From assembly GCA_964359095.1 (NCBI GenBank), contig CAYHRJ010000001.1, positions 1 to 62,498 on the forward strand: 62,498 bases of DNA. Direction: 5' to 3'. The DNA is from an uncultured Gammaproteobacteria bacterium (GTDB lineage Bacteria > Patescibacteriota > Patescibacteriia > UBA9934 > GWF2-40-263). Of this stretch, positions 2,152-62,498 are shown piece after piece. Under the pieces are notes generated by a model. That model saw nothing but the letters and a program-made list of their open reading frames with translations, did no database searches and was not told where the DNA came from. The position numbers and the translations under genes were made by a program. Every line of letters starts with the position of its first letter. Position 1 is the stretch's first letter.

Positions 2152-2222
2152 GTACCCTCCTTTATTGCTGGGCGCCTCAACACTAGAACTTACCGACAAT
2201 TAAATCAATGCAGCGCTTGATC

Positions 2223-2680
2223 TTGTCATCCCGACCGAGGAGTCCAACGACGAGCGGAGGGATCTCTAGACCGATGTCTATTCTGTCATCCCGACCGAAG
2301 GCCTGTTCTACAGGCCGAAGCGGAGGGATCCCTAAAGCGCTTCCGACAGATCTTGCCACTCCGGATTCTCCTGGTTGATCAACCATTCTTTCTTTTCCCT
2401 CCTCCACTTCTTCAGTTGCTTCTCACGTTCGATCGCTTCCAAAATGTCACCACAGCTCTCCGCATAGACAAGGTTCGTACAGTTGTATTTGGTCGTGAAA
2501 CCAGGAACCAATTTCTGCTGATGTTCAAAAGAGCGACGTTGAATATTATTCGTCACTCCGATATATAAAACAGTGTGCGAAGGGTTGGTCATGATGTAGA
2601 CGAAATATTCACGATCGCTCATAAGACACTCGAGATCCCTCGGCTTCGCTCCCAGAGGTCGCTCCGCTCGGGATGACAAA
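2223..2680 (-). mobile_element. TIR-bounded 458-bp GIY-YIG cassette, copy 1
   Basis: Starts TTGTCATCCCGACCGAGG and ends GCTCCGCTCGGGATGACAAA, the approximate reverse complement. By eye it is identical to 2696-3153. Confidence 0.6.
2332..2622 (-). CDS. GIY-YIG nuclease family protein (UPF0213-like), 96 aa, copy 1
   Basis: MSDREYFVYIMTNPSHTVLYIGVTNNIQRRSFEHQQ... carries the GIY...YIG...R..EH motifs. The internal ATG at 2622 is taken as the start. The longer 182-aa ORF reads through the repeat. Confidence 0.85.
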   Translation of the reverse strand: MSDREYFVYIMTNPSHTVLYIGVTNNIQRRSFEHQQKLVPGFTTKYNCTNLVYAESCGDILEAIEREKQLKKWRREKKEWLINQENPEWQDLSEAL

Positions 2681-2695
2681 TGGAGGAACCTCAAT

Positions 2696-3153
2696 TTGTC
2701 ATCCCGACCGAGGAGTCCAACGACGAGCGGAGGGATCTCTAGACCGATGTCTATTCTGTCATCCCGACCGAAGGCCTGTTCTACAGGCCGAAGCGGAGGG
2801 ATCCCTAAAGCGCTTCCGACAGATCTTGCCACTCCGGATTCTCCTGGTTGATCAACCATTCTTTCTTTTCCCTCCTCCACTTCTTCAGTTGCTTCTCACG
2901 TTCGATCGCTTCCAAAATGTCACCACAGCTCTCCGCATAGACAAGGTTCGTACAGTTGTATTTGGTCGTGAAACCAGGAACCAATTTCTGCTGATGTTCA
3001 AAAGAGCGACGTTGAATATTATTCGTCACTCCGATATATAAAACAGTGTGCGAAGGGTTGGTCATGATGTAGACGAAATATTCACGATCGCTCATAAGAC
3101 ACTCGAGATCCCTCGGCTTCGCTCCCAGAGGTCGCTCCGCTCGGGATGACAAA
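2696..3153 (-). mobile_element. TIR-bounded 458-bp GIY-YIG cassette, copy 2
   Basis: Direct repeat of 2223-2680 after the 15-bp spacer tggaggaacctcaat. It ends 4 nt before the stop codon of the beta-CASP gene. Confidence 0.6.
2805..3095 (-). CDS. GIY-YIG nuclease family protein, 96 aa, copy 2
   Basis: The translation is identical to copy 1. Confidence 0.85.
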   Translation of the reverse strand: MSDREYFVYIMTNPSHTVLYIGVTNNIQRRSFEHQQKLVPGFTTKYNCTNLVYAESCGDILEAIEREKQLKKWRREKKEWLINQENPEWQDLSEAL

Positions 3154-3157
3154 ACAG

Positions 3158-4561
3158 TTAAACTTCATGACTACTCTGATACTCCGGGATCACCACCTCT
3201 GTCCCCAGCTTGTGTCTCAGGTGCGTAGCGAAGACCTCCTTGGCTTCTGGGTCGCCGTGGACGAGAAAAATCTTTTTTGGAATTACGCCGTCTTCAGGGC
3301 GCAGCCAGCGGGTGAGTTTGTTCATGTCGCCGTGGGCGGAAAACGCGCCGATAGCGCTGACTTGTGCATGAACAGGAATGTCGTCGCCAAAAATTTTGAC
3401 GCGTTTGGCGCCTTCATAAATTTTGCGCCCGAGCGTTCCTTGCGCTTGGTATCCAATGATGAGAACGCGATTTTTGTGATCAGGTAAATAACGCCGCAAG
3501 TGGTGCATGATGCGTCCCCCGGACATCATGCCGGAACCAGCGATGATAATCATCGGTGGAGTCGTGTTGTTGATCTCTTTGGATTCCTCACGGCTGAGCG
3601 TCTCACGCAGATTGGGGAAGCTGAAAAAATCTTTATCTGGTTGCGCAATGAGCGATGCATCAAACTTCAAATAATTTTGAAAGTGGCGATAGAGTTCTGT
3701 CGCACGGATCGCCATGGGGCTGTCGAGAAAAATGGGAATCTTCGTTTTGAGATCCTTCTGCAGCAACTGATCGATCTCGTAGAGCAATTCTTGTGTTCGC
3801 TCAATCGAGAACGCAGGGATCATGAGCACGCCACGGTCGTGGATGGTGTGCTGAATGGCATCGCGCAACATCGAGGAGCGCTGTTCGATAGGTTCATGTT
3901 CACGATGACCGTACGTAGATTCACAGATGACAACGTCTGCGTGAGACATCGGTTCCGTGTCTGGCAGAATCGGTACGTTATCGTTTCCGATGTCCCCTGA
4001 ATACACAAGACGTTTTCCTTCCTCGCCCACCATAGCTCCATTCGGAGCGACGGCGGGAGCGTCAAGAGAAATATAAGACGATCCAAGCACGTGTCCAGCT
4101 TCATGAAACATGACGACGATGCCAGGCGCAACCTCGAGATGCTCGTGATAACTGACGGCCTTCACTTGTTCAAACACGCGATTCACGTCTTCCATTTCAT
4201 ACAAAACTTCAGAGCCACACTTCTCTGCTTCCTCTTTCATGATGTGATGCGCGTCCTCGAGAACCAATTTGGCAAGACCAACGCACGGCTCGACCATGTA
4301 GATCGTTCCGGTAAATCCTTGACTCACAATCTTGGCAAGACGTCCAGTGTGATCTGCATGTGGGTGAGAGACAAAAATCGCCTCGATCGTCGAGGGATCA
4401 AACGCGAACGCATCTTTATTTTTTGATCCGCACATGTGCTCGCCTTGAAACATCCCGCAGTCAAAAAGATACTGTCGGATTTTGCCATTTGCATCCTTCA
4501 CCTCAACCTGGTGGCATGACCCTGTAACCTCTCGCGCCGCGCCGTGGAAGGTTAATTTCAT
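3158..4561 (-). CDS. MBL-fold beta-CASP ribonuclease/nuclease (CPSF/RNase J-like)
   Basis: Carries the HPHADHTG (HxHxDH) motif, and 467 aa is typical for the beta-CASP family. The C-terminal HGD motif is present. Confidence 0.8.
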   Translation of the reverse strand: MKLTFHGAAREVTGSCHQVEVKDANGKIRQYLFDCGMFQGEHMCGSKNKDAFAFDPSTIEAIFVSHPHADHTGRLAKIVSQGFTGTIYMVEPCVGLAKLVLEDAHHIMKEEAEKCGSEVLYEMEDVNRVFEQVKAVSYHEHLEVAPGIVVMFHEAGHVLGSSYISLDAPAVAPNGAMVGEEGKRLVYSGDIGNDNVPILPDTEPMSHADVVICESTYGHREHEPIEQRSSMLRDAIQHTIHDRGVLMIPAFSIERTQELLYEIDQLLQKDLKTKIPIFLDSPMAIRATELYRHFQNYLKFDASLIAQPDKDFFSFPNLRETLSREESKEINNTTPPMIIIAGSGMMSGGRIMHHLRRYLPDHKNRVLIIGYQAQGTLGRKIYEGAKRVKIFGDDIPVHAQVSAIGAFSAHGDMNKLTRWLRPEDGVIPKKIFLVHGDPEAKEVFATHLRHKLGTEVVIPEYQSSHEV

Positions 4562-6507: not shown

Positions 6508-6598
6508 CGAACGCAGGCTCCCACCGTCGCTTCCGCCGTCGCCAAGGCTATGGCGGACAAGAAAGCTACGGTGGGCAGGAAAGCCTGCGGCTACCTCA
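6508..6598. repeat. 91-bp imperfect palindromic element (PE-A), intergenic copy
   Basis: 88/91 identical to 8056-8146. The arms caggct/agcctg, cccaccgt/acggtggg and tccgcc/ggcgga can pair. Confidence 0.85.
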
Positions 6599-6628
6599 TC
6601 TACCTGATCCACCTCTTCCACCTTTTTT

Positions 6629-7671: not shown

Positions 7672-9237
7672 TTACACCACGCTTCCTCCAAACTCTGCGA
7701 GTAGTTCTTGCACGGCTGCCTCCTCTGGTCTCTTGGACTGGATGGCTTTGATCTTCATCCTCCTTCCCAAAACTCTTTCAAACACATCCTCGATGGTCTT
7801 TCTGTTTTTATCCTGATTCACGGTTTGAACGTACAGGTCATATTCAAACCCAAGTTCTACTTTGTCGTCCACTACACCACGCACTTCACACGATTGCATA
7901 AACAAAGGTAGAGACGCGTTGCACGACTTGATCTGTTCATAGACCTGCGGCCATTTTTCTTTGACATCTTCGATGCTGATGACGGGAATTGTGTCGAAGA
8001 CTGTTTCGGATGTGTCATTTTGATGGAGCACGGGGACAGGAACCACCTCTTCAATCGAACCCAGGCTCCCACCTTCGCTTCCGCCGTCGCCAAGGCTATG
8101 GCGGACAAGAAAGCTACGGTGGGCAGGAAAGCCTGGGGCTACCTCAATAGTCTCAACTCGACTCGAATCAACCTCCTGTTTCTGAAAATCATTTTTTGTT
8201 TCTTGTCTTACTCCGCAAATTCTGATAATAGAGAGCTCCACAGGAAGCTGTGGGATATGTTCTGAACGAATCAATCGCTCGGCGGCAAGAAGTTCCTCAA
8301 TCGCTCGGCAGAGGAACACAGGGTCGAATGATGTTTCTTTTTGAGAGACCGACTCCAGTAACCGATCACGTAACCAAGAGGTCGTGTCTGCGAGAAACTG
8401 ATGAAGATCGACGCCTTGATCAAGATATGTGTTCAACAATGCAATGGAACCTGAGGCGTCGAGCCTCCCCAGTGCACCAACAAACTCCTCGACCAATACC
8501 AACTGTGTCGCGGGCAAAACAAGCGATGCTTCTTTCATGGTGATCTGTTTCTCCCCAAGCGCTAAAACTTGTCCAAGCAGGGACTCCGCGTCGCGCGCAC
8601 AGCCTCCACTGTGTCTGGCAATCGCTTGAAGAACGTCGACGTCCACCTTCACGCCTTCCTCTTTTACAATTCCCTCCATTCGACGCACCAGTTCCTCAGA
8701 TGAAATTTTTTTAAAATCAAAACGCGCACAGCGACTGATGATCGTCTCAGGAACTTTGTGAATCTCTGTTGTGGCAAGAATAAAAAGCGCGTGCTCAGGT
8801 GGTTCTTCCAAGGTTTTCAGAAGCGCGTTAAACGCGGAACCAGAAAGCATGTGAACTTCGTCAATGATGTAGATCTTTTTTTTGAGCGAGCTCGGAGCAA
8901 AACGAACCGACTGAATGATATTCTCTCGCACATGCTCCACGTCTGTGTGGGAAGCTGCATCGATCTCAAACACATCGAGTGCTGTTCCAGACATAACCTG
9001 CTTACAGGCGGTACAGGCATTGCACGGCTCATTTTTTTTTGGATTCAAACAATTCACGAGTTTCGCTAACAATCGCGCGAGTGTGGTTTTACCAACACCA
9101 CGCGGACCCGTAAACAAATAAGCGTGAGTCAAGGACTCAGAGCCAAATTGATTTTGAAGGGTTTTTACGACGTGGTTTTGCCCACTCACCTCTTCAAATG
9201 TTGTTGGTCGATAGATGCGATAAATCGCTTTGGACAT
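7672..9237 (-). CDS. dnaX: DNA polymerase III subunit gamma/tau
   Basis: GPRGVGKTT Walker A, a CNACTAC zinc module, DEVHMLS and the SRC motif. It carries an in-frame PE-A repeat. Confidence 0.9.
   Translation of the reverse strand: MSKAIYRIYRPTTFEEVSGQNHVVKTLQNQFGSESLTHAYLFTGPRGVGKTTLARLLAKLVNCLNPKKNEPCNACTACKQVMSGTALDVFEIDAASHTDVEHVRENIIQSVRFAPSSLKKKIYIIDEVHMLSGSAFNALLKTLEEPPEHALFILATTEIHKVPETIISRCARFDFKKISSEELVRRMEGIVKEEGVKVDVDVLQAIARHSGGCARDAESLLGQVLALGEKQITMKEASLVLPATQLVLVEEFVGALGRLDASGSIALLNTYLDQGVDLHQFLADTTSWLRDRLLESVSQKETSFDPVFLCRAIEELLAAERLIRSEHIPQLPVELSIIRICGVRQETKNDFQKQEVDSSRVETIEVAPGFPAHRSFLVRHSLGDGGSEGGSLGSIEEVVPVPVLHQNDTSETVFDTIPVISIEDVKEKWPQVYEQIKSCNASLPLFMQSCEVRGVVDDKVELGFEYDLYVQTVNQDKNRKTIEDVFERVLGRRMKIKAIQSKRPEEAAVQELLAEFGGSVV
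8056..8146. repeat. PE-A palindromic element, in-frame copy inside dnaX
   Basis: 88/91 identical to 6508-6598. It is translated as APGFPAHRSFLVRHSLGDGGSEGGSLGS. Confidence 0.85.
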
Positions 9238-9240
9238 ATT

Positions 9241-9320
9241 GGGGAGGTTGTAGGTAGTAGGTTTTAGGTGGTAGGAGGAATTCGAAATTGGATTCCTACA
9301 ACCTACTGCCTAAAACCTAA
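9241..9320. repeat. TAGG-rich intercistronic hairpin (PE-D) upstream of dnaX
   Basis: Contains the exact 18-mer TAGGTTTTAGGTGGTAGG (9258-9275), shared with 19039-19056 and 46385-46402. The right arm is attcctacaacctactgcctaaaacc. Confidence 0.8.
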
Positions 9321-9943
9321 TGGCTTATTCGTTCCACGGCAGCCCAGCCACACGCCCCTCCTGCTGGAACCAGAATGACGACCTCGTCTCCTGGGATTCC
9401 TTTGAAGTAGGACACGCTCGCCGCAAGCACGTTATACACGTCCTCCCCGCACATCACAACCGGCACCTGTGTGGAAGCATCGACGGCGAGCCTTCCCACC
9501 AAACGGGTGCGTGCGATCGGCGCAATTTGCTTGAAGACACTCGTGCCGTCTGAACGAATGACGAGTTTCAACATGTCTCCTTCGACGAGCTTAGATTTTG
9601 AAGCGTAATTTTCTGGCACGGCATAGCGTGCACCATCGGCACCGACCATGGCTTGCCCATCAAACACGCCCTCCAACACTCGAGATCCCGCCGTAATCTC
9701 GAGCTCGGCTTCTGTCCGTTTTTTGTTGGATACAAAGTCAACCATCTGTCGCGTTGCACGCGTGGTATCGCCTTCTTCGAGCAGTTGAATAACATGATTC
9801 ATGCTATCTCGCACAGCCTTCAACATCTGCAGCGCCAAACGACCACGGACTTCACCATGCTCCGCGCGATTGGCATGAAGCGAGACATCAGGCTCCACTT
9901 CAAATGTCTCTTCTTCAATTTCTTCATCCGAAAATGTGTACAT
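9317..9943 (-). CDS. Hypothetical protein (acidic N-terminus)
   Basis: 208-aa ORF, tightly packed between dnaX and the ATPase gene. No motif recognised. Confidence 0.6.
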   Translation of the reverse strand: MYTFSDEEIEEETFEVEPDVSLHANRAEHGEVRGRLALQMLKAVRDSMNHVIQLLEEGDTTRATRQMVDFVSNKKRTEAELEITAGSRVLEGVFDGQAMVGADGARYAVPENYASKSKLVEGDMLKLVIRSDGTSVFKQIAPIARTRLVGRLAVDASTQVPVVMCGEDVYNVLAASVSYFKGIPGDEVVILVPAGGACGWAAVERISH

Positions 9944-16507: not shown

Positions 16508-16549
16508 AACAGACTATACACGGATAATCGAAATTGGTAAGTCTGTCAA

Positions 16550-16575
16550 GACACGTCGCTCGCGAGCGACGTGTC
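16550..16575. repeat. Perfect 26-nt TCGCGA-centred palindrome (PE-B)
   Basis: gacacgtcgctcgcgagcgacgtgtc, flanked by the direct repeat tcaaga. It abuts the stop codon at 16574-16576. Confidence 0.9.
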
Positions 16576-17146
16576 AAGAGTAGTGTCCGTATCCTCGATC
16601 TTCTTTTCCTCCACCAAAGAGAGCCATGGCGATCACCGGCAACAGAACCCAAGCGGCTCGAGCGATGTCGCTCAAAAATAATGCTCGCGTGAATTGAGAA
16701 AGGACATCCACAAGATCGGTAGGAAAAAAAGAAAGAGTCACACTAACAAGCAGTCCCACGTGAAGAAACGAAAAAATCATGACTTGCCAAAGTTTGCCCT
16801 GCGTCGCGCCATGACCAAGAGTGCGCATGAGAGCTGAATGTGAGAGAAAAAAGAATAAGAGGATGAAGATACCAAGAAACACAGTGACGCGCAACGCAAA
16901 CGCATCGTTCACAGAAATGTTCGCACTGAACTCCGACACAAACGGAATGTAATTCACGATCGCAAGCGACATATAGATCGAGACAAGAATCACGATGATG
17001 CGATCACGACCAAGCGAGATGCCGTAGATGAGAGACGCGACAATAAAAAAGATCAGGATAAAGAGATCCCAGGTTGGATTGAGCCAGTTGATGCTCTCAA
17101 GTGCCCTCTGCGCAGCAGCTTGATCGAAGATGGCGGTTTGTAGCAT
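16574..17146 (-). CDS. Integral membrane protein, unknown function
   Basis: 190 aa with 5-6 hydrophobic helices. Confidence 0.6.
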   Translation of the reverse strand: MLQTAIFDQAAAQRALESINWLNPTWDLFILIFFIVASLIYGISLGRDRIIVILVSIYMSLAIVNYIPFVSEFSANISVNDAFALRVTVFLGIFILLFFFLSHSALMRTLGHGATQGKLWQVMIFSFLHVGLLVSVTLSFFPTDLVDVLSQFTRALFLSDIARAAWVLLPVIAMALFGGGKEDRGYGHYS

Positions 17147-17805: not shown

Positions 17806-18170
17806 CACCAAAACAAAACCCGCCGTTGAGTGGCGGATGTTGTTTGGACCCGGGCTCGCTGAATTTACAGCTGGTGGACCACGTCGTTCGCGAACGACGT
17901 GGTGGACCCGACGGGATTTGCACGGCGAGGACAGTGAGTAGAGAGACTGATTTTTCTCAGTTTCTCTCGAACGACGCAGCCGTCCTGTTCGAACGAAGTG
18001 AGAACAACACCCGTATTGGTCGGTGCTAACTCGACTAGGGTTACCAATTACCCTCACGGGCCCATGAGCCCGGGAAAAATAAAATCCCCCAACGTCAAAG
18101 ACCAAATGGCCTTTGTATTGAGGGAGTTTATTGTTAGCACCGACACTGTGAGGGCAATGCCCTAGTCGTA
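17806..18170 (-). ncRNA. Candidate structured noncoding RNA or long cis-regulatory leader, class unresolved
   Basis: No credible ORF. A TTGACA at 18204-18199 with TCTACT/TACTGT -10 candidates lies upstream. An intrinsic terminator (ccgcc-N7-ggcgg plus a T-run) lies at 17836-17806. The region has many local hairpins and crossing long-range complementarities. Confidence 0.35.
17878..17903. repeat. Perfect 26-nt TCGCGA-centred palindrome (PE-B) inside the ncRNA candidate
   Basis: accacgtcgttcgcgaacgacgtggt. The 20-nt core is flanked by an 8-bp direct repeat, ggtggacc on the plus strand. Confidence 0.9.
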
Positions 18171-19004: not shown

Positions 19005-19032
19005 ACAGACAGTGGGGATGTCTTAGTTATGA

Positions 19033-19112
19033 AGGTAGTAGGTTTTAGGTGGTAGGTGTTAGGTTTTGGAAAATTCCGAAAACCTACAACCTAATCACTA
19101 AACCCTACAACC
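19033..19112. repeat. TAGG-rich intercistronic hairpin (PE-D)
   Basis: Exact 18-mer TAGGTTTTAGGTGGTAGG at 19039-19056. The right arm aaacctacaacctaa...ccctacaacc overlaps the 3' end of rsmH. Confidence 0.8.
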
Positions 19113-19974
19113 TTGTTTTCTCGGCAACGCGCAGTTTGGCTGAGCGAGCGCGAGGGTTCTTTCTCACCTCCTCTTGGGAAGGAGTGATCACGTGCTTGTT
19201 CACGAGGCTCAGATCGGCACGAGACTTGAGGAACCGTTTCACCAGGCGATCTTCCAGAGAATGGAAGCTGATGATGGCGATTCTCCCGCCTGGCACAAGC
19301 AGGTCGACGAAGTCTGGAAGGGCTCGCTCGAGCTCTCCGAGTTCGTCGTTCACCGTGATCCTGAGTGCTTGGAACACTCGGGTTGCACCGTGCGTTCTCC
19401 CCTGTCTTCTAAGCGCCTTTGAAAGACACTCGACAAGGGAAGCCGTCGTTTCGATCCGTGCGACTTTTCGACACTCGACGATCGCCTCTGCTGCCTGCGC
19501 AGCTTTTGGTTCCTCACCATAGAGTCGGAACACACGTGCGAGTTCCTCTTGCGACCACTCGTTCACGATCACCTCGGCGGTGAGCATTTGTGATTGGTCG
19601 AAGCGCATATCAAGCGGACCGTCGTTCACAAACGAGAATCCTCGAGTCGGATCGTCCACATGAACGGACGAGAATCCGAGATCCAGGAGAATTCCGTTCA
19701 CACGATCGAAACCGTGATGAGCGGCGTGAGTCTTTGCGTGTGAGTAACTATCGCGCACCAACACGACAGCATCACCAAACCCCGAAAGCCGCTCACGCGC
19801 AGTCTCGAGATTTTTGGCATCACGATCAATGCCGAGCAGACGGCCGCCAGGGAAGACACGCGCAAGCAATGCTTGTGCATGTCCCCCCAGCCCCACTGTG
19901 CCGTCTATCAAAAAGTCGTTCGGCTCCGGCTTGAGGTTTTCAATCACCTCGGTAAGGAGGACAGGTTGGTGCAT
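19105..19974 (-). CDS. rsmH: 16S rRNA (cytosine1402-N4)-methyltransferase
   Basis: MHQPVLLTEV...DGTVGLGGH...DLGFSS...SFHSLEDR motifs. Start set at the internal ATG at 19974. Confidence 0.9.
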   Translation of the reverse strand: MHQPVLLTEVIENLKPEPNDFLIDGTVGLGGHAQALLARVFPGGRLLGIDRDAKNLETARERLSGFGDAVVLVRDSYSHAKTHAAHHGFDRVNGILLDLGFSSVHVDDPTRGFSFVNDGPLDMRFDQSQMLTAEVIVNEWSQEELARVFRLYGEEPKAAQAAEAIVECRKVARIETTASLVECLSKALRRQGRTHGATRVFQALRITVNDELGELERALPDFVDLLVPGGRIAIISFHSLEDRLVKRFLKSRADLSLVNKHVITPSQEEVRKNPRARSAKLRVAEKTRL

Positions 19975-21926: not shown

Positions 21927-23294
21927 TCATGTTCCAATCGACTGTTTTCCTCTCAACGTCCTGTGATACTTCACTGCAAACCTGTGCGCTTCATCACGCG
22001 CGCGCTGGAACAGTTCTTTGCCTCGTGAGATGACGCGTTGTAGATCTTGATTGTCATGATCATACACGAGTCGATCTTGCTTGCGATCAAATCCTTTTGC
22101 GATACCAATAATCGGCACTTCCACGCCAAGTTCGTCCAAAACATCCTGCACGCGATTCACCTGCGGCTCTCCTCCGTCGATGATCATGAGCTCAGGAAGC
22201 TCCCAGGCTCCCACTGCACTCCCACCCCCCTTGATCCCCCCTCCGCCTTCGCCAAGGCTTCGGCGGACAGGTCGGGCAGGGGGGAAGGCTCTTTTCAAGC
22301 GTCTTCTCATCACTTCCTCCATGCACGCCACGTCGTTGGCTCCCTTGACCGTCTTGATCTTGAATTTGCGATAGAGGTTCTTCGCGGGTTTCCCTTCCAC
22401 AAACACCACCATCGATCCCACGGCAGATGTTCCCGAGATGTTACTGATGTCGTAGCCCTCGATGCGTCCCATGAGATTGACGGTGCCGTCTGTCTCCTTC
22501 TTGGTAAACGGCAGCTCGTAATCTTCTCGAGAGATGAGCGCGATGTCTTGGATGTGCGTCAGCGCGCTCAGCCGACGAACAAGCACAGCAGCTTTCTCAA
22601 ACTGAAGTTTCTTGGCGGCGAGCGTCATCTCTTTTTTGAGCTCGCGCTCGAGCTTCGCCTTCTTCCCATCAAAAAATAAAATCAGCTGTCGAATCACATG
22701 TCGATAATCCGTTTTGCTAATCGTCCCAGTACACACTCCTGGGCATTTCCCGATCTGCGCATTGAAGCATGGACGACGCTGTCCAGGCTCACACGTGGAC
22801 CAAGGAATACCGCGACGGATCATGTCCAAGGCCATTTTCAAAGAACGACTGCTGGTATACGGACCGAAGACGCGCAAAAAATTTTTTCCGGCGGAGCCTG
22901 ATCCAGCCTTTAGGCGGGACTTTCCCAACGTGAGTTCATGTCCACGAATCAACTGCGGACGCGGATAGGGCTCGTCCGTGATCACCAGATACAAAAACGT
23001 CTTATCATCGCGGCCAAGGATATTGTACTTGGGTCGCCGCGCTTGGATCTCGTTGGCCTCCAAGACCAATGCCTCGATCACAGTTGGCGTCTGGTGATAA
23101 TCGATTCTGGCAATCTGTGCGACCATCTCACCGATTCTGTCATCGTGAGCTTTTACAAAATACGAACCCACTCGTCGTTTCAGGGACGTGGCTTTGCCAA
23201 TATAAAGCAGATGACCTGCACGATCGTAATAAAAATACACACCCGGGCCATCAGGAAGTTTACCGTTTTTCAATTTGATTTCAGCTGGAATCAT
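21927..23294 (-). CDS. uvrC: Excinuclease ABC subunit C (short form, no C-terminal (HhH)2 domain)
   Basis: GIY-YIG domain (GVYFYYDRAGHLLYIGKATSLKRRV), a UVR-like helix (QFEKAAVLVRRL) and an endonuclease domain ending AHRFAVKYHR. Start set at the ATG at 23294. Contains an in-frame PE-A copy. Confidence 0.85.
   Translation of the reverse strand: MIPAEIKLKNGKLPDGPGVYFYYDRAGHLLYIGKATSLKRRVGSYFVKAHDDRIGEMVAQIARIDYHQTPTVIEALVLEANEIQARRPKYNILGRDDKTFLYLVITDEPYPRPQLIRGHELTLGKSRLKAGSGSAGKNFLRVFGPYTSSRSLKMALDMIRRGIPWSTCEPGQRRPCFNAQIGKCPGVCTGTISKTDYRHVIRQLILFFDGKKAKLERELKKEMTLAAKKLQFEKAAVLVRRLSALTHIQDIALISREDYELPFTKKETDGTVNLMGRIEGYDISNISGTSAVGSMVVFVEGKPAKNLYRKFKIKTVKGANDVACMEEVMRRRLKRAFPPARPVRRSLGEGGGGIKGGGSAVGAWELPELMIIDGGEPQVNRVQDVLDELGVEVPIIGIAKGFDRKQDRLVYDHDNQDLQRVISRGKELFQRARDEAHRFAVKYHRTLRGKQSIGT
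22202..22290. repeat. PE-A palindromic element, diverged in-frame copy inside uvrC
   Basis: Shares cccaggctcccac...tccgccttcgccaaggcttcggcggacagg...gggcagg with 6508-6598. It is translated as RPVRRSLGEGGGGIKGGGSAVGAWE. Confidence 0.75.
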
Positions 23295-23330
23295 ACTCAA
23301 AATCCTATCATGACTCTTGCCACGTCGCTC

Positions 23331-23373
23331 GCCACGATCGTTCGCGAACGACGTGGCTCGCGAACGACGTGGC
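23331..23373. repeat. PE-B palindrome (imperfect) with tandem half-site
   Basis: gccacgatcgttcgcgaacgacgtggc followed by a second tcgcgaacgacgtggc. It lies in the divergent uvrC/cupredoxin intergenic region. Confidence 0.8.
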
Positions 23374-23410
23374 TTGCGATTCAAGAACATGCCTGCTACC
23401 CTTCCTGCAT

Positions 23411-23950
23411 ATGAAATATTTCCTTTCTTTCTTGACAGTCCTTGCGCTTGTCGGCGCCGGATGCACTGCCAAAACTGATTCACAGACATCTGCTGAAGCA
23501 AACGCGGACACACAGCAGGTCGTTGAACAAGATATCAGCGAGCCGTCGGAAGTTGACTCTGGTGATACAGACACAACAGACGGAACCGTCGATGTGGAAC
23601 TGATCACACAAGATGTAGAGACCGGATCTACGACGAATGAAAACGGCGTGCCCGTCTTCGAGGTCGTGCTCGGTGCACAAGCAGACGTAGAAGTCGACAT
23701 GGAAGCAGGAAACTTTTTCTTTGACACAAAAGAAATCAAGGTCTCACCTGGTGACCGAGTCAGCATCACCTTCACCAAGAACTCGGGGTTCCATACCTTC
23801 GTCATCGATGAGATCGACTTAAACTTCACTGTCACGGAAGGCGAAGTTCTGAACTTCACCGCACCAACGGAACCAGGATCCTATCCCATTTACTGCGACA
23901 TCGGCTCCCACCGCGCGTTTGGGATGGAAGGAATGCTGATTGTGGAATAA
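23411..23950 (+). CDS. Cupredoxin (plastocyanin/azurin-like blue copper) lipoprotein
   Basis: Lipobox LVGAGC. Copper ligands are FHTF...YCDIGSHRAFGM (His, Cys, His, Met). Confidence 0.8.
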   Translation: MKYFLSFLTVLALVGAGCTAKTDSQTSAEANADTQQVVEQDISEPSEVDSGDTDTTDGTVDVELITQDVETGSTTNENGVPVFEVVLGAQADVEVDMEAGNFFFDTKEIKVSPGDRVSITFTKNSGFHTFVIDEIDLNFTVTEGEVLNFTAPTEPGSYPIYCDIGSHRAFGMEGMLIVE

Positions 23951-28644: not shown

Positions 28645-28678
28645 CCTGCCCGCCGTAGCCCAGCAGGGCGAAGGTGGG
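28645..28678. repeat. Truncated PE-A copy (outer arms only, inverted orientation)
   Basis: The reverse complement, cccaccttcgcc...gctacggcgggcagg, matches the PE-A arms. Confidence 0.55.
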
Positions 28679-35350: not shown

Positions 35351-35424
35351 GCGGGATTAGTATAGTGGCAGTATGTCAGCTTCCCAAGCTGAAGGCGCGG
35401 GTTCGATTCCCGTATCCCGCTCCA
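35351..35424 (+). tRNA. tRNA-Gly (anticodon CCC), CCA encoded
   Basis: Acceptor gcgggat/atcccgc, anticodon loop tTCCCaa and T arm gcggg-ttcgatt-cccgt. Confidence 0.85.
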
Positions 35425-35453
35425 ACCTTCGCTAAAGCTACGGCTGGCAAGCC
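35422..35453. repeat. Mini PE-A copy (arms only) overlapping the CCA of tRNA-Gly
   Basis: ccaaccttcgct|aaagctacggctggcaagcc, compared with the PE-A arms cccaccttcgct...aaagctacggtgggcaggaaagcc. Confidence 0.55.
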
Positions 35454-35459
35454 AAAAAA

Positions 35460-40879: not shown

Positions 40880-40920
40880 AGGTGGGGAGGTGAAAGAGGT
40901 GGTAAAGGTAGATGAGGTGA

Positions 40921-46371: not shown

Positions 46372-46455
46372 AGGGAGTAGGTGATAGGTTTTAGGTGGTA
46401 GGGATCGGAAGCCGGATTTCGAACTCCGGACTTCGACTATAACCTACAACCTACA
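46372..46455. repeat. TAGG-rich intercistronic hairpin (PE-D) between ftsW and murG
   Basis: Exact 18-mer TAGGTTTTAGGTGGTAGG at 46385-46402. The right arm is tataacctacaacctaca. Confidence 0.8.
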
Positions 46456-49651: not shown

Positions 49652-49814
49652 TAGACCTGTTACCAAATAAGCTTATAGCCGAAAAATGTCAGATTCGAGC
49701 GAAAGTCGTTTGAGGAAACCGAAGAATAGCCTTAGCTATTTTGAGGTTTTCGAAAATGGCTTGCAGCCGAATATGACGTTTTGCAGGCATAAGATTATTT
49801 GGCAACAGGTCTAG
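49652..49814. repeat. 163-nt long imperfect hairpin (MITE-like or structured RNA)
   Basis: Terminal arms tagacctgttaccaaataagcttat and ataagattatttggcaacaggtcta, with further internal pairing. Confidence 0.75.
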
Positions 49815-61568: not shown

Positions 61569-61642
61569 AGGGGAGTAGTGAAGCGGTATCACGACTCTCT
61601 CCAAAAGAGTTATCCCGGGTTCGATCCCCGGCTCCCCTGCCA
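61569..61642 (+). tRNA. tRNA-Trp (anticodon CCA), CCA end encoded
   Basis: Acceptor aggggag/ctcccct, discriminator G, anticodon loop cTCCAaa and T arm ccggg-ttcgatc-cccgg. Confidence 0.88.
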
Positions 61643-61668
61643 CGTCGGTCGCGACCGACGTGGCCTGC
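61637..61668. repeat. PE-B palindrome overlapping the 3' end of tRNA-Trp; left copy of a 32-bp direct repeat
   Basis: ctgccacgtcggtcgcgaccgacgtggcctgc is identical to 62467-62498. The 26-nt perfect palindrome gccacg...cgtggc is at 61639-61664. Confidence 0.9.
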
Positions 61669-62341: not shown

Positions 62342-62498
62342 CTAACCTTCAAAGGCTTCAACGACCTCAAGACGAAGTTCGCGGAGCTGGCCAAGACCTG
62401 GAATGGTTTCGTCCGCCCTCTTTAGAGATTCATCGCGACCAAAGTTCGCACGTCGCTTGCGAAGGCCTGCCACGTCGGTCGCGACCGACGTGGCCTGC
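62342..62498 (-). CDS. 3' end of an unidentified ORF entering from the right window edge
   Basis: The frame is open from the window edge to a TAG at 62344-62342 (...GLRKRRANFGRDESLKRADETIPGLGQLRELRLEVVEAFEG). It would read through a PE-B palindrome. The family was not recognised. Confidence 0.3.
   Translation of the reverse strand, partial: QATSVATDVAGLRKRRANFGRDESLKRADETIPGLGQLRELRLEVVEAFEG
62467..62498. repeat. PE-B palindrome; right copy of the 32-bp direct repeat (truncated by the window end)
   Basis: Identical to 61637-61668. Confidence 0.9.

Follow-up and report, generated by a model that had tools for sequence, protein, structure and literature searches.

How can a long palindromic repeat come to lie within an essential replication gene and leave its reading frame open? 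The question is raised by the dnaX gene of contig CAYHRJ010000001.1 (assembly GCA_964359095.1), the whole of which, 62,498 nt, was analysed here and is called the window below. A preliminary description, made from the letters alone, had noted that a 91-nt palindrome within dnaX (8056-8146) recurs in an intergenic spacer and had taken it for a single selfish element. Our analysis leads to another picture, which we consider quite probable as far as the modules, their nesting and their copying are concerned, the enzyme being a separate matter: the 91-mer would be a nested composite, in which a hairpin with an 8-bp stem that is native to dnaX has received two 30-nt hairpin modules, one within the other, before the whole was copied into the spacer.

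The 88 of 91 identical positions reported earlier for 8056-8146 and 6508-6598 were found again (blastn E 2.6e-41); the flanks of the two copies are unrelated, and the similarity stops sharply at both ends. The second copy is bounded by the stop codon of the dihydrouridine synthase gene Dus (6498) and the start codon of a gene for a RimK-like ATP-grasp protein (6629). RNAfold gave the 91-mer a folding energy of -45.1 kcal/mol on the plus strand (z -3.8) and of -48.4 kcal/mol on the dnaX sense strand (z -4.0), no shuffled sequence being as stable on either strand, and it paired the same arms as had been proposed by eye, caggct/agcctg, cccaccgt/acggtggg and tccgcc/ggcgga. Two of the three differences between the copies amount to one compensatory swap, G-C to C-G, at the paired positions 6 and 80; we estimate the chance of such a pair among three differences at roughly 0.7%, and the pattern suggests that stem pairing is upheld either by selection or by a palindrome-correcting replication error. 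No intrinsic-terminator-like site or tail was found at either copy, and with Rfam 15 only tRNAs reached gathering scores in the window, the element obtaining nothing but chance matches to miRNA precursors at a permissive E-value. The earlier worry about a chimeric assembly is answered by a separate Hainich groundwater assembly (well H41, locus L127), which is 99.78% identical over 8,673 nt and contains both 91-nt copies, 1,548 nt apart, with the identical three differences; because this independent assembly holds both copies, misassembly is excluded for practical purposes.

The composite nature of the dnaX copy is seen when the site is compared with those of relatives (Table 1). In the dnaX of locus L122, which reads CCCAGGCTTCAGCCTGGG, the two arms of the outer hairpin are directly joined with nothing between them; in L123, 30 nt have been added at the same point, and in the window 60 nt. 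Each step amounts to ten codons, and the second unit lies in the loop of the first. When the inner module is excised from the window sequence (8065-8079 joined to 8110-8130), a complete 36-nt module including its flanks is restored, and this rejoined outer module is identical to a copy beside a tRNA-Gly gene at 28 of 36 positions, counted by hand. Judged from these alignments, the site would have gone from empty to +30 and then +60 nt, or else would have lost the same units. The outer hairpin itself was considered as a candidate multi-copy repetitive extragenic palindrome (REP) and rejected, no further copy being found in the window or in the six related loci L121-L126.

The succession that we propose begins with an 18-nt hairpin (CCCAGGCT-TY-AGCCTGGG, with GTAG 5' on the sense strand), which would first have stood in the disordered DnaX linker of a clade of Uhrbacteria. 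A discrete 30-nt hairpin module would then have entered the apex of this hairpin, a second one the loop of the first, and the entire composite would later have been copied to the Dus-RimK spacer, 1.5 kb off. As for the direction of this last step, the sequences indicate that the intergenic copy is most likely the derived one, copied from a composite of the dnaX type and not the reverse, because dnaX is the native place of the outer hairpin with its flanks and relatives have an empty spacer. In L122 and L123, the outer hairpin and the adjoining bases (GAGGTAG... and ...GGGTKCG) form an ordinary part of dnaX, and the spacer copy of the 91-nt unit includes a few bases of this coding flank. Between Dus and RimK, the element is absent from L121 in the alignment; gene coordinates leave a spacer of just 2 nt in L123 and of 37 nt in the P0005 genome.

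The dnaX frame had been described as open through the repeat, in the variable region after the ATPase domains, and this is borne out. The open reading frame (ORF) is translated across the repeat as APGFPAHRSFLVRHSLGDGGSEGGSLGS, with the predicted segments FPAHR, SFLVR and HSLGDGGSEGGSLGSIEEVVPVPVLHQNDTSETVFDTIPVISIEDVK at the insert; Pfam matches the ATPase domains to residues 19-229 and DnaX_C, C-terminal of the insert, to residues 420-498, and an alignment of 20 orthologues shows that the part joining domain III to the C-terminal domain is hypervariable in both length and sequence. Since the conserved DnaX_C lies beyond the insert, the frame must remain open through the insert for that domain to be made. 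The peptide is absent from all of the closest orthologues (77-81% identity). In an AlphaFold2 model built on the DnaX alignment, residues 345-420, which cover the insert, have a predicted local distance difference test score (pLDDT) below 50 and no secondary structure. The insert is most likely translated, because translation must traverse it to reach the conserved C-terminal domain, and would add 20 Gly/Ser/Arg-rich residues to an unstructured linker with little effect. The likely consequence for DnaX is therefore an ordinary one, a tolerated linker insertion; translation, neutrality and the route of insertion are all things that we infer. Candidatus Uhrbacteria or Patescibacteria are the names attached to the best relatives of DnaX and UvrC, in keeping with the earlier view that the genome resembles those of the candidate phyla radiation (CPR); it is a CPR genome, of a Candidatus Uhrbacteria, and of roughly the 1-Mb class.

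Different Uhrbacteria fill the DnaX linker differently, and the linker is therefore one at which differing palindrome families have repeatedly landed. In L126, from another Uhrbacteria clade, it contains (at about 3070-3150) an in-frame, head-to-head pair of REPs of the TGTC/CGTC type (VIASHAKQS...EIASVAELPRND), and in L121 it consists of tandem 9-nt repeats, GCCGTAGAG/GTCGTAGAA, translated AVEAVEVVE. About 53 nt 5' of the element on the dnaX sense strand (8189-8199, minus strand) we also noticed the codons ACA AAA AAT GAT, with a run A AAA AAT in phase, directly followed in the -1 frame by the codon TGA; at the equivalent place L122 reads A AAA AAG, with a -1 stop three codons on, and the run is missing in L121 and L123. 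The run is reminiscent of the tau/gamma frameshift site of E. coli dnaX and, if used for frameshifting, would yield a short product without the insert. Programmed frameshifting stimulated by the hairpin was rejected: the spacing of about 53 nt is too far for a classical stimulator, and the run is not conserved in L121 and L123.

Is the 30-nt module found elsewhere in the genome? The window was searched for the family consensus TCCGCCTTCGCCAAGGCTWCGGCGGACARG and for half-site motifs, as well as with a covariance model (R1), and 50 random sequences generated from a Markov chain gave no match to the consensus at up to 8 mismatches. The 62-kb contig has six module sites, three of them coding (dnaX, uvrC and an RNase gene), and all three preserve the frame. 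The uvrC copy agrees with the family consensus at 30/30 positions and with the dnaX copy at 25 of 28 core positions. It is an exact addition of 30 nt: the empty site in L124 reads CCTGCCAGA / GGGGGGACA, and that of the window reads CCTGCCCGA / 30-nt module / GGGGGGATC, the module standing at the apex of an older C-run/G-run hairpin. The preliminary description had thus been right that a third copy lies in frame in uvrC, but the homology is restricted to the 30 nt at 22242-22271 and does not extend over the whole of 22202-22290. An 11-nt match to CAGGCTCCCAC nearby (22204-22214) was rejected as due to chance; it overlaps the conserved codons of WELP. At 22878-22934 of the same gene, an extra LGKSRLKAGSGSAG relative to P0122 has GGCGGA-like motifs and obtained no score from the scan or the covariance model.

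The remaining copies are more diverged. In the beta-CASP RNase gene, whose identity is supported by Pfam, the covariance model matched 4019-4060 (24 bits, E 6e-4), coinciding with a clean 12-aa insertion that is missing from orthologues 92% (L121) and 82% identical. Two further sites had been described as arm-only derivatives (28645-28678 and 35422-35453); they proved instead to be complete diverged modules, with 33.8 and 45.7 bits, respectively. The former, upstream of uvrB, has a counterpart at the equivalent place in L125 (4457-4497), and the latter, beside tRNA-Gly, was matched at 35419-35454 (E 1e-9). Since blastn-short with the 91-mer alone put both copies at chance level, the mismatch-tolerant scan and the covariance model were needed to detect them.

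Related genomes carry the module in comparable genes. In the genome of L121 and L125, a composite of about 100 nt, namely a C-run/G-run hairpin enclosing the module together with a second hairpin, occurs twice in uvrC (L125, 10001-11521), the two being 1 mismatch apart and both in frame, and once in uvrA (7700-7820) in the opposite orientation. In the UvrC of a Doudnabacteria genome (L044), one module lies in the linker that also holds it in the UvrC of the window, and it is read in the same frame.

Table 1. Positions of the composite repeat, its component modules and their host genes in the window, with the dnaX sites of two relatives (slashes mark junctions; the inner module is in parentheses)
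Feature	Position	Strand	Remarks
dnaX (DNA polymerase III gamma/tau)	7672..9237	-	521 aa; Pfam DNA_pol3_delta2, AAA, lid domain, DnaX_C; orthologue names
Composite palindromic repeat, dnaX copy	8056..8146		91 nt; in frame, residues ~364-391
Outer hairpin, left arm CCCAGGCT	8060..8067		8-bp stem; present already in L122 dnaX
60-nt (20-codon) insert	8068..8127		Relative to the empty L122 site; apparently two nested 30-nt modules; codon-threaded alignment of window, L121 and L122
Outer module, 5' half CCCACCTTCGCT	8068..8079	+	Split by inner module
Inner 30-nt module TCCGCCGTCGCCAAGGCTATGGCGGACAAG	8080..8109	+	2 mismatches to family consensus; covariance model 54.4 bits
Outer module, 3' half AAAGCTACGGTGGGCAGG	8110..8127	+	Right-half motif match at 8113-8127, 2 mismatches
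Outer hairpin, right arm AGCCTGGG	8130..8137		Followed by GGCTACCTC; sense strand GAGGTAGCC, i.e. 5' GTAG on the hairpin
dnaX site of L122 (P0005), sense strand			GAGGTAGTCCCAGGCTTC / AGCCTGGGTGCGATTGAG; bare 8-bp-stem hairpin; peptide VPGF / SLGA; junction GGCTTC / AGCCTGG
dnaX site of L123 (P0006), sense strand			CCCAGGCTTT / 30 nt / AGCCTGGATACG; +30 nt at the same point
dnaX site of window, sense strand			CCCAGGCTTT / CCTGCCCACCGTAGCTTT (CTTGTCCGCCATAGCCTTGGCGACGGCGGA) AGCGAAGGTGGG / AGCCTGGGTTCG; +60 nt
Composite palindromic repeat, intergenic copy	6508..6598		Whole composite in Dus-RimK spacer; most likely the derived copy
Inner 30-nt module of intergenic copy	6532..6561	+	Consensus scan and covariance model
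uvrC	21927..23294	-	455 aa; true start within longer ORF 21927..23513; P0121 100% identical, 455 aa; Pfam GIY-YIG, UvrC_RNaseH_dom
30-nt module in uvrC, in frame	22242..22271	+	Peptide PVRRSLGEGG; 0 mismatches to consensus
Older C-rich/G-rich uvrC hairpin, left part	22219..22241		Hosts the module; module-free in L124/P0122 and P0128 (FPPARGG.QGGGS)
Older uvrC hairpin, right part	22272..22288		As left part
36-nt module variant in beta-CASP/metallo-beta-lactamase RNase gene (3158..4561, -)	4022..4057	-	Encodes PAVAPNGAMVGE, in frame
Module variant with longer apical loop	28642..28681	-	44-83 nt upstream of the uvrB start codon (28598); 33.8 bits, E 1.5e-6
Diverged module abutting the 3' end of tRNA-Gly (35351-35424)	35422..35451	+	7 mismatches to consensus

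We then asked how widely the module is distributed. It had been thought to represent an independent family of CPR-like genomes, which is not the case: the core pattern TCCGCCNTCGCCAAGGCTNNGGCGGACA, 28 nt long with 25 bases specified, has matches in at least 120 stretches of the one-genome-per-species GTDB collection, where by our own calculation about 0.001 matches are expected by chance over 1.2e12 positions. Judging by record titles, the matches listed include the isolates Bradyrhizobium (with a complete chromosome) and Bdellovibrio (a complete genome), along with Verrucomicrobia, Acidobacteria, Planctomycetes, Elusimicrobia, Omnitrophota, Nitrospirae, Kiritimatiellae and a number of lineages of the CPR, a dozen or more phyla. 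The exact 28-nt core was also present in nine predicted viral contigs of IMG/VR (L128-L136), which could be vehicles of transfer between phyla or could reflect prophage/host boundaries; a BLAST search with the 37-nt consensus gave no match in the GenBank phage or PLSDB plasmid collections. The flanks of the module vary from locus to locus. In Bradyrhizobium the core lies in the middle of dimers of CGTC-tagged REPs, and in loci from other phyla (L014, L073, L074 and L078) left and right halves are stacked, as nested self-insertion predicts. At several loci from Verrucomicrobia and Planctomycetes (L018, L019, L028, L039, L052, L055, L062, L066 and L111), the module was observed within tandem arrays of 7-8-nt units (CCCTCAG, GGGTTTC, CCGCTTA, TTGGGTT).

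The whole unit is one hairpin, whose outer stem has 6 bp and whose inner stem has at least 2 bp. When 108 distinct copies were aligned to the model, 99.2% of the cells were paired, and five of the six outer-stem pairs had changed on both sides (UA to CG 12 times, CG to AU 4 times and GC to AU 3 times); 0 of 500 shuffles reached these values, and slid registers were only 30-48% paired. The stem variants of the Uhrbacteria, CCCACC/GGTGGG, CCAGCC/GGCTGG and CCCGCC/GGCGGG, follow the same pairing pattern by eye. The module begins with TCCGCC, its internal loop (TTCGCC...GCTWC) and 3' CARG are conserved, and its apical part is variable in length (AAG, CTGCTGG, CCTTCGGA, CCGAATGGA) and often has a small stem of its own.

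Such modules are non-coding and non-autonomous, but they are often found inside genes: 19 of 121 instances had open frames of at least 300 nt on both sides, and all ten in-frame hosts submitted to Pfam were real proteins, namely UvrD, UvrC, CTP synthase (PyrG), MgsA/RarA, Lhr, PriA, two glycosyltransferases, a DUF255 thioredoxin-like protein and FeoB. Half of these ten act on DNA; as the choice of hosts from a ranked list was made by eye, this enrichment is no more than suggestive. Coding hosts read the module in at least four of its six frames and in both orientations, giving peptides such as SAFAKASAD, RLRQGFGGQ, VRRSLGEGG and LSAEALAKAE, and a function at the peptide level is therefore unlikely. 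As the unit is 30 nt long, gains and losses keep the frame; moreover, the consensus in its TC form is free of stop codons in all six frames (a single TAG, in one of the reverse frames, is present in the AC form), so that copies can survive in tolerant places. In an ATP synthase alpha-like ORF (L094), the module was observed near the C-terminus together with repeated DPRLRGDDRGSRGDDRGS units, which are probably in-frame members of a further GC-rich repeat family.

As to how such a unit moves, no target duplication was seen at the three pairs of empty and filled sites (dnaX, uvrC and the RNase gene), and the module is preceded at its 5' side by GCT in 23% of the instances, against a background of 1.7%, and by CT in 39%, against 5%. 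A hairpin unit, the lack of duplication and a short 5' motif together resemble the products of Y1/HUH-type enzymes, and we tentatively suggest that the module might be inserted as a single-stranded hairpin by an enzyme of this type acting in trans, such as a REP-associated tyrosine transposase (RAYT) or an IS200-like one, which would act 3' of a short CT/GCT motif, often in hairpin loops and without target duplication. The RAYT enzyme TnpA-REP cleaves at CT dinucleotides beside REPs. Template switching during replication may in addition serve to maintain the stems. No linked transposase was found: when 2,988 ORFs from 120 module loci were clustered all against all, no family was present in more than 5 loci, a result that speaks only against tight linkage. 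Put together, the 30-nt hairpin could be a pan-bacterial, nearly invariant, non-autonomous mobile module, inserted next to CT/GCT by a widely conserved enzyme, nesting in itself, serving as a source of linkers and loops, and retained with a bias in genome-maintenance genes (DnaX, UvrA, the UvrB leader, UvrC, UvrD, PriA, RarA and Lhr); as a whole this proposal is speculative. If mobile, the module would be, to our knowledge, the smallest discrete mobile DNA unit described.

Several observations weigh against this account or limit it. Flanking direct repeats of at least 9 nt (9-14 nt) were found in 6% of 117 instances compared with 0.6% of the controls, an excess that a pure no-duplication mechanism does not predict. 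The bias to GCT/CT is partial and is inflated by about a dozen related, non-independent Bradyrhizobium loci, and the uvrC site follows CCC. Clearly complementary flanks were seen in 12% of the instances (1% of the controls), so that insertion at the apex of a hairpin is a tendency and not a rule. The empty site of L122 could be the result of a precise loss rather than the ancestral state, and the inserts can be delimited only to within 1-2 nt. Fitting the covariation alignment to the model structure biases its counts towards that structure. Finally, no mobilising enzyme was identified, and the data from this genome consist of one 62-kb contig.

Could the repeat have arisen in another way? One explanation holds that the hairpins were made and enlarged locally by replication errors, through quasipalindrome template switching and slippage, and that their likeness is convergence with no mobile unit involved. 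Template switching is documented to create hairpins and one-step compensatory changes (PMC8794818), the compensatory pair between the two window copies is of this kind, and some instances do lie in short tandem-repeat arrays or have flanking direct repeats. Local copying, however, cannot put an identical 30 nt at unrelated sites. The insert in uvrC is the consensus common to Bradyrhizobium, Verrucomicrobia and Planctomycetes, its host hairpin (CCCCCC/GGGGGG) is unrelated, and the inserts, each an exact unit of 30 nt whose internal loop is conserved and non-palindromic, cannot be derived from the opposite strand nearby; we regard a purely local origin as quite improbable. It is unlikely, though to be taken seriously, that the hairpin is instead a selected signal, whether a protein-binding site, a hairpin that stabilises or processes mRNA, a ribosome-pausing element of dnaX or an uptake-like tag favouring genome-maintenance genes, a bias known from the DNA uptake sequences of Neisseria. 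Its loop is conserved and its stem covaries across phyla, it stands at an equivalent place upstream of uvrB in two genomes, copies adjoin tRNA-Gly and sit 3' of Dus, and the hosts are rich in replication and repair genes, echoing the survey of Di Nocera and colleagues (PMC3733652). Nevertheless, close relatives differ, at each of the sites examined, in whether they have the module, coding hosts carry it in both orientations and in four or more reading frames, there is no terminator-like tail and no Rfam family, and the dnaX slippery run is about 53 nt away; a function in some copies would in any case be compatible with spread as selfish DNA.

A finding that the preliminary description itself had named as fatal to its reading was that the peptide is ancestral in DnaX, the intergenic copy being a stray duplicate of coding sequence and no repeat family existing. 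Part of this stands: the outer hairpin and its flanks are ancestral dnaX sequence common to L122 and L123, and the intergenic copy is apparently derived. The inner 60 nt, however, are missing in L122 and in other close orthologues, and copies of the module occur in uvrC, the RNase gene, the uvrB leader, the tRNA-Gly flank and at least 120 GTDB stretches, so that on sequence comparison the explanation is refuted for the inner 60 nt and holds for the outer 18-nt hairpin only; as an account of the whole element it is very unlikely. That a chimeric join merely put the intergenic repeat into dnaX would fit the fact that the exact DnaX protein of the window was found on a single contig in the protein collection. 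The second assembly, from another sample, has both copies with identical differences, the frame is kept and followed by a conserved C-terminal domain, intermediate states exist in other genomes, and the insert-bearing uvrC protein (P0121) is also encoded on a 5,478-nt contig, listed as the longest that carries it, all of which leaves an artefact a negligible chance. Nested insertion of a widespread 30-nt module is the reading with which we proceed.

The kind of element seen here is already known, and what is unusual is the family of repeats from which it comes. Palindromes lying in frame in genes of replication and repair had been presented as new, but this claim fails because both the survey of Di Nocera, De Gregorio and Rocco (2013; PMC3733652) and the Rickettsia palindromic elements (RPEs) precede it. 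The survey reported REPs with a GTAG or CGTC tag from more than 80 species in eight phyla; the intragenic ones, occurring as dimers or groups, encode 20-30 residues in hosts such as uvrA, uvrB, uvrC, uvrD, recBCD, polA, dnaE2 and dnaE, with a striking bias to DNA synthesis and repair, and some REPs lie inside larger palindromes. Like the module, these intragenic REPs are palindromes of 20-40 bp of which a fraction lies in ORFs, in repair and replication hosts, and which nest in larger palindromes; REPs are mostly intergenic, have G-T pairs in their stems and, in the case of the CGTC type, lack a dedicated transposase (PMC3733652). In its size of 30 nt and its well-paired stem-loop (6-bp outer stem, 99.2% of cells paired) the module would pass for a REP, but it has no unpaired GTAG or CGTC tag, starting instead with TCCGCC and ending with CARG; GTAG occurs in it only inside the loop, on the reverse strand of the AC variant, whereas the outer dnaX hairpin has a 5' GTAG. 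REP families are, furthermore, mostly specific to a species or order, whereas the core of the module is conserved nearly base for base across phyla and nests in itself in 30-nt steps. Neither the text nor the supplements of PMC3733652 contain the peptides SLGEGG, FGGQ, AFAKA and EALAKA, and CPR genomes lie outside this survey; the 'large GCGG/CCGC loops up to 27 bp' that it gives for Bradyrhizobium GTAG-14 may be the module seen as a loop variant.

RPEs resemble the module in being selfish, in frame in unrelated genes, read as peptide and compatible with the protein fold (Ogata et al. 2000, as cited in PMC10969869), and the in-frame copies in dnaX, uvrC and the RNase gene, with predicted conserved domains downstream, agree with this. 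By description the module is set apart from them, however, since RPEs are about 150 bp long and form ten families restricted to Rickettsia, each with a conserved peptide (PMC10969869), whereas here the unit is 30 nt, the composite 91 nt, several frames are used, the host belongs to the Uhrbacteria and the distribution is phyla-wide; RPE-4 and RPE-6 are themselves CGTC REPs (PMC3733652). Bacterial transposable elements of the miniature inverted-repeat type (MITEs) such as Coxiella QMITE1 and QMITE2, ERIC and BOX are likewise small, non-autonomous inverted repeats, some of which form in-frame ORF fusions (PMC5896051 and PMC10969869), and such fusions by intragenic MITEs are called 'not unusual' in the latter, a 2024 review; QMITE2 contains a GTAG REP that is targeted by other elements, e.g. 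IS1111 (PMC5896051). MITEs, on the other hand, measure 100-400 bp, carry terminal inverted repeats and are flanked by direct-repeat duplications of the target, whereas the 30-nt module shows no regular duplication of fixed length; its arms are inverted repeats by construction. Because it lacks both the tag of REPs and the duplication of MITEs, we did not file the module under either. The proposed route of insertion would be shared with the REPIN/RAYT and IS200/IS605 Y1 (HUH) systems, in which a non-autonomous hairpin, itself the unit that is recognised, is moved in trans, without target duplication, at a short motif, but REPINs are REP doublets inherited vertically within lineages, and IS200/IS605 ends carry two different subterminal hairpins, whereas the module is a single hairpin. 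Tobes and Pareja are said to have described, in 2006, insertion sequence (IS) elements that target REP hairpins; these aim at a pre-existing palindrome as the module would, but they are full insertion sequences with transposase genes. Searches of the literature full text with the core DNA strings and the peptides of the module returned no paper, and we could not find described the module itself, its conservation across phyla, its 30-nt self-nesting, its presence in CPR genomes or a coding donor of an intergenic copy.

The window contains other repeats, which are recorded here as separate observations. A palindrome family CCACGTCGNTCGCGANCGACGTGG has copies at 16547-16579, 17875-17907, 23329-23377, 61636-61668 and 62466-62498, one adjoining tRNA-Trp and one at the contig end, and a related hairpin, CCCGCCCGAACGACCGTTCGACGGTCGGGCGGG, stands beside the module in the composites of L125. 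At 2216-3152 there is a perfect 300-nt direct repeat (2223-2522 and 2696-2995, 473-nt spacing), corresponding to two tandem small, stand-alone GIY-YIG nuclease genes (Pfam GIY-YIG, E 2e-15), both of which are preceded by TGTC-tagged hairpins (TGTCATCCCGACCGAGG...CGGAGGGATC) of another palindrome family. Intergenic arrays like AGGTNGTAGG occur at 583-613, 6593-6623, 9245-9326, 19026-19113, 40888-40918 and 46372-46402; just upstream of the RimK and dnaX starts they appear on the sense strand as runs of CCTACC/CCACCT, pyrimidine-rich leaders that are like the 3' end of 16S rRNA rather than a Shine-Dalgarno site. A long imperfect palindrome at 49652-49813, with two 79-nt arms that are 75% complementary and 4 nt apart, lies just upstream of, and overlaps, the 5' end of a ribosomal protein L27-like ORF.

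What the locus offers, then, is an essential replication gene, together with uvrC and a beta-CASP RNase gene, with recent hairpin inserts that can be dated stepwise against relatives. For gene callers and protein-family builders, the peptides SAFAKASADK, RLRQGFGGQ, VRRSLGEGG and LSAEALAKAE would be recognisable signs of spurious or inserted sequence. If a dedicated enzyme were found, the module would be a new minimal mobile element and could explain why palindromes recur in DNA repair genes, the bias noted in 2013. For the streamlined genomes of these bacteria, the finding suggests that repeats are taken up as 30-nt, frame-neutral, stop-free units in disordered linkers and surface loops, and, if this is true, a 10-codon, essentially stop-free module would be a general source of linker and loop insertions in proteins.

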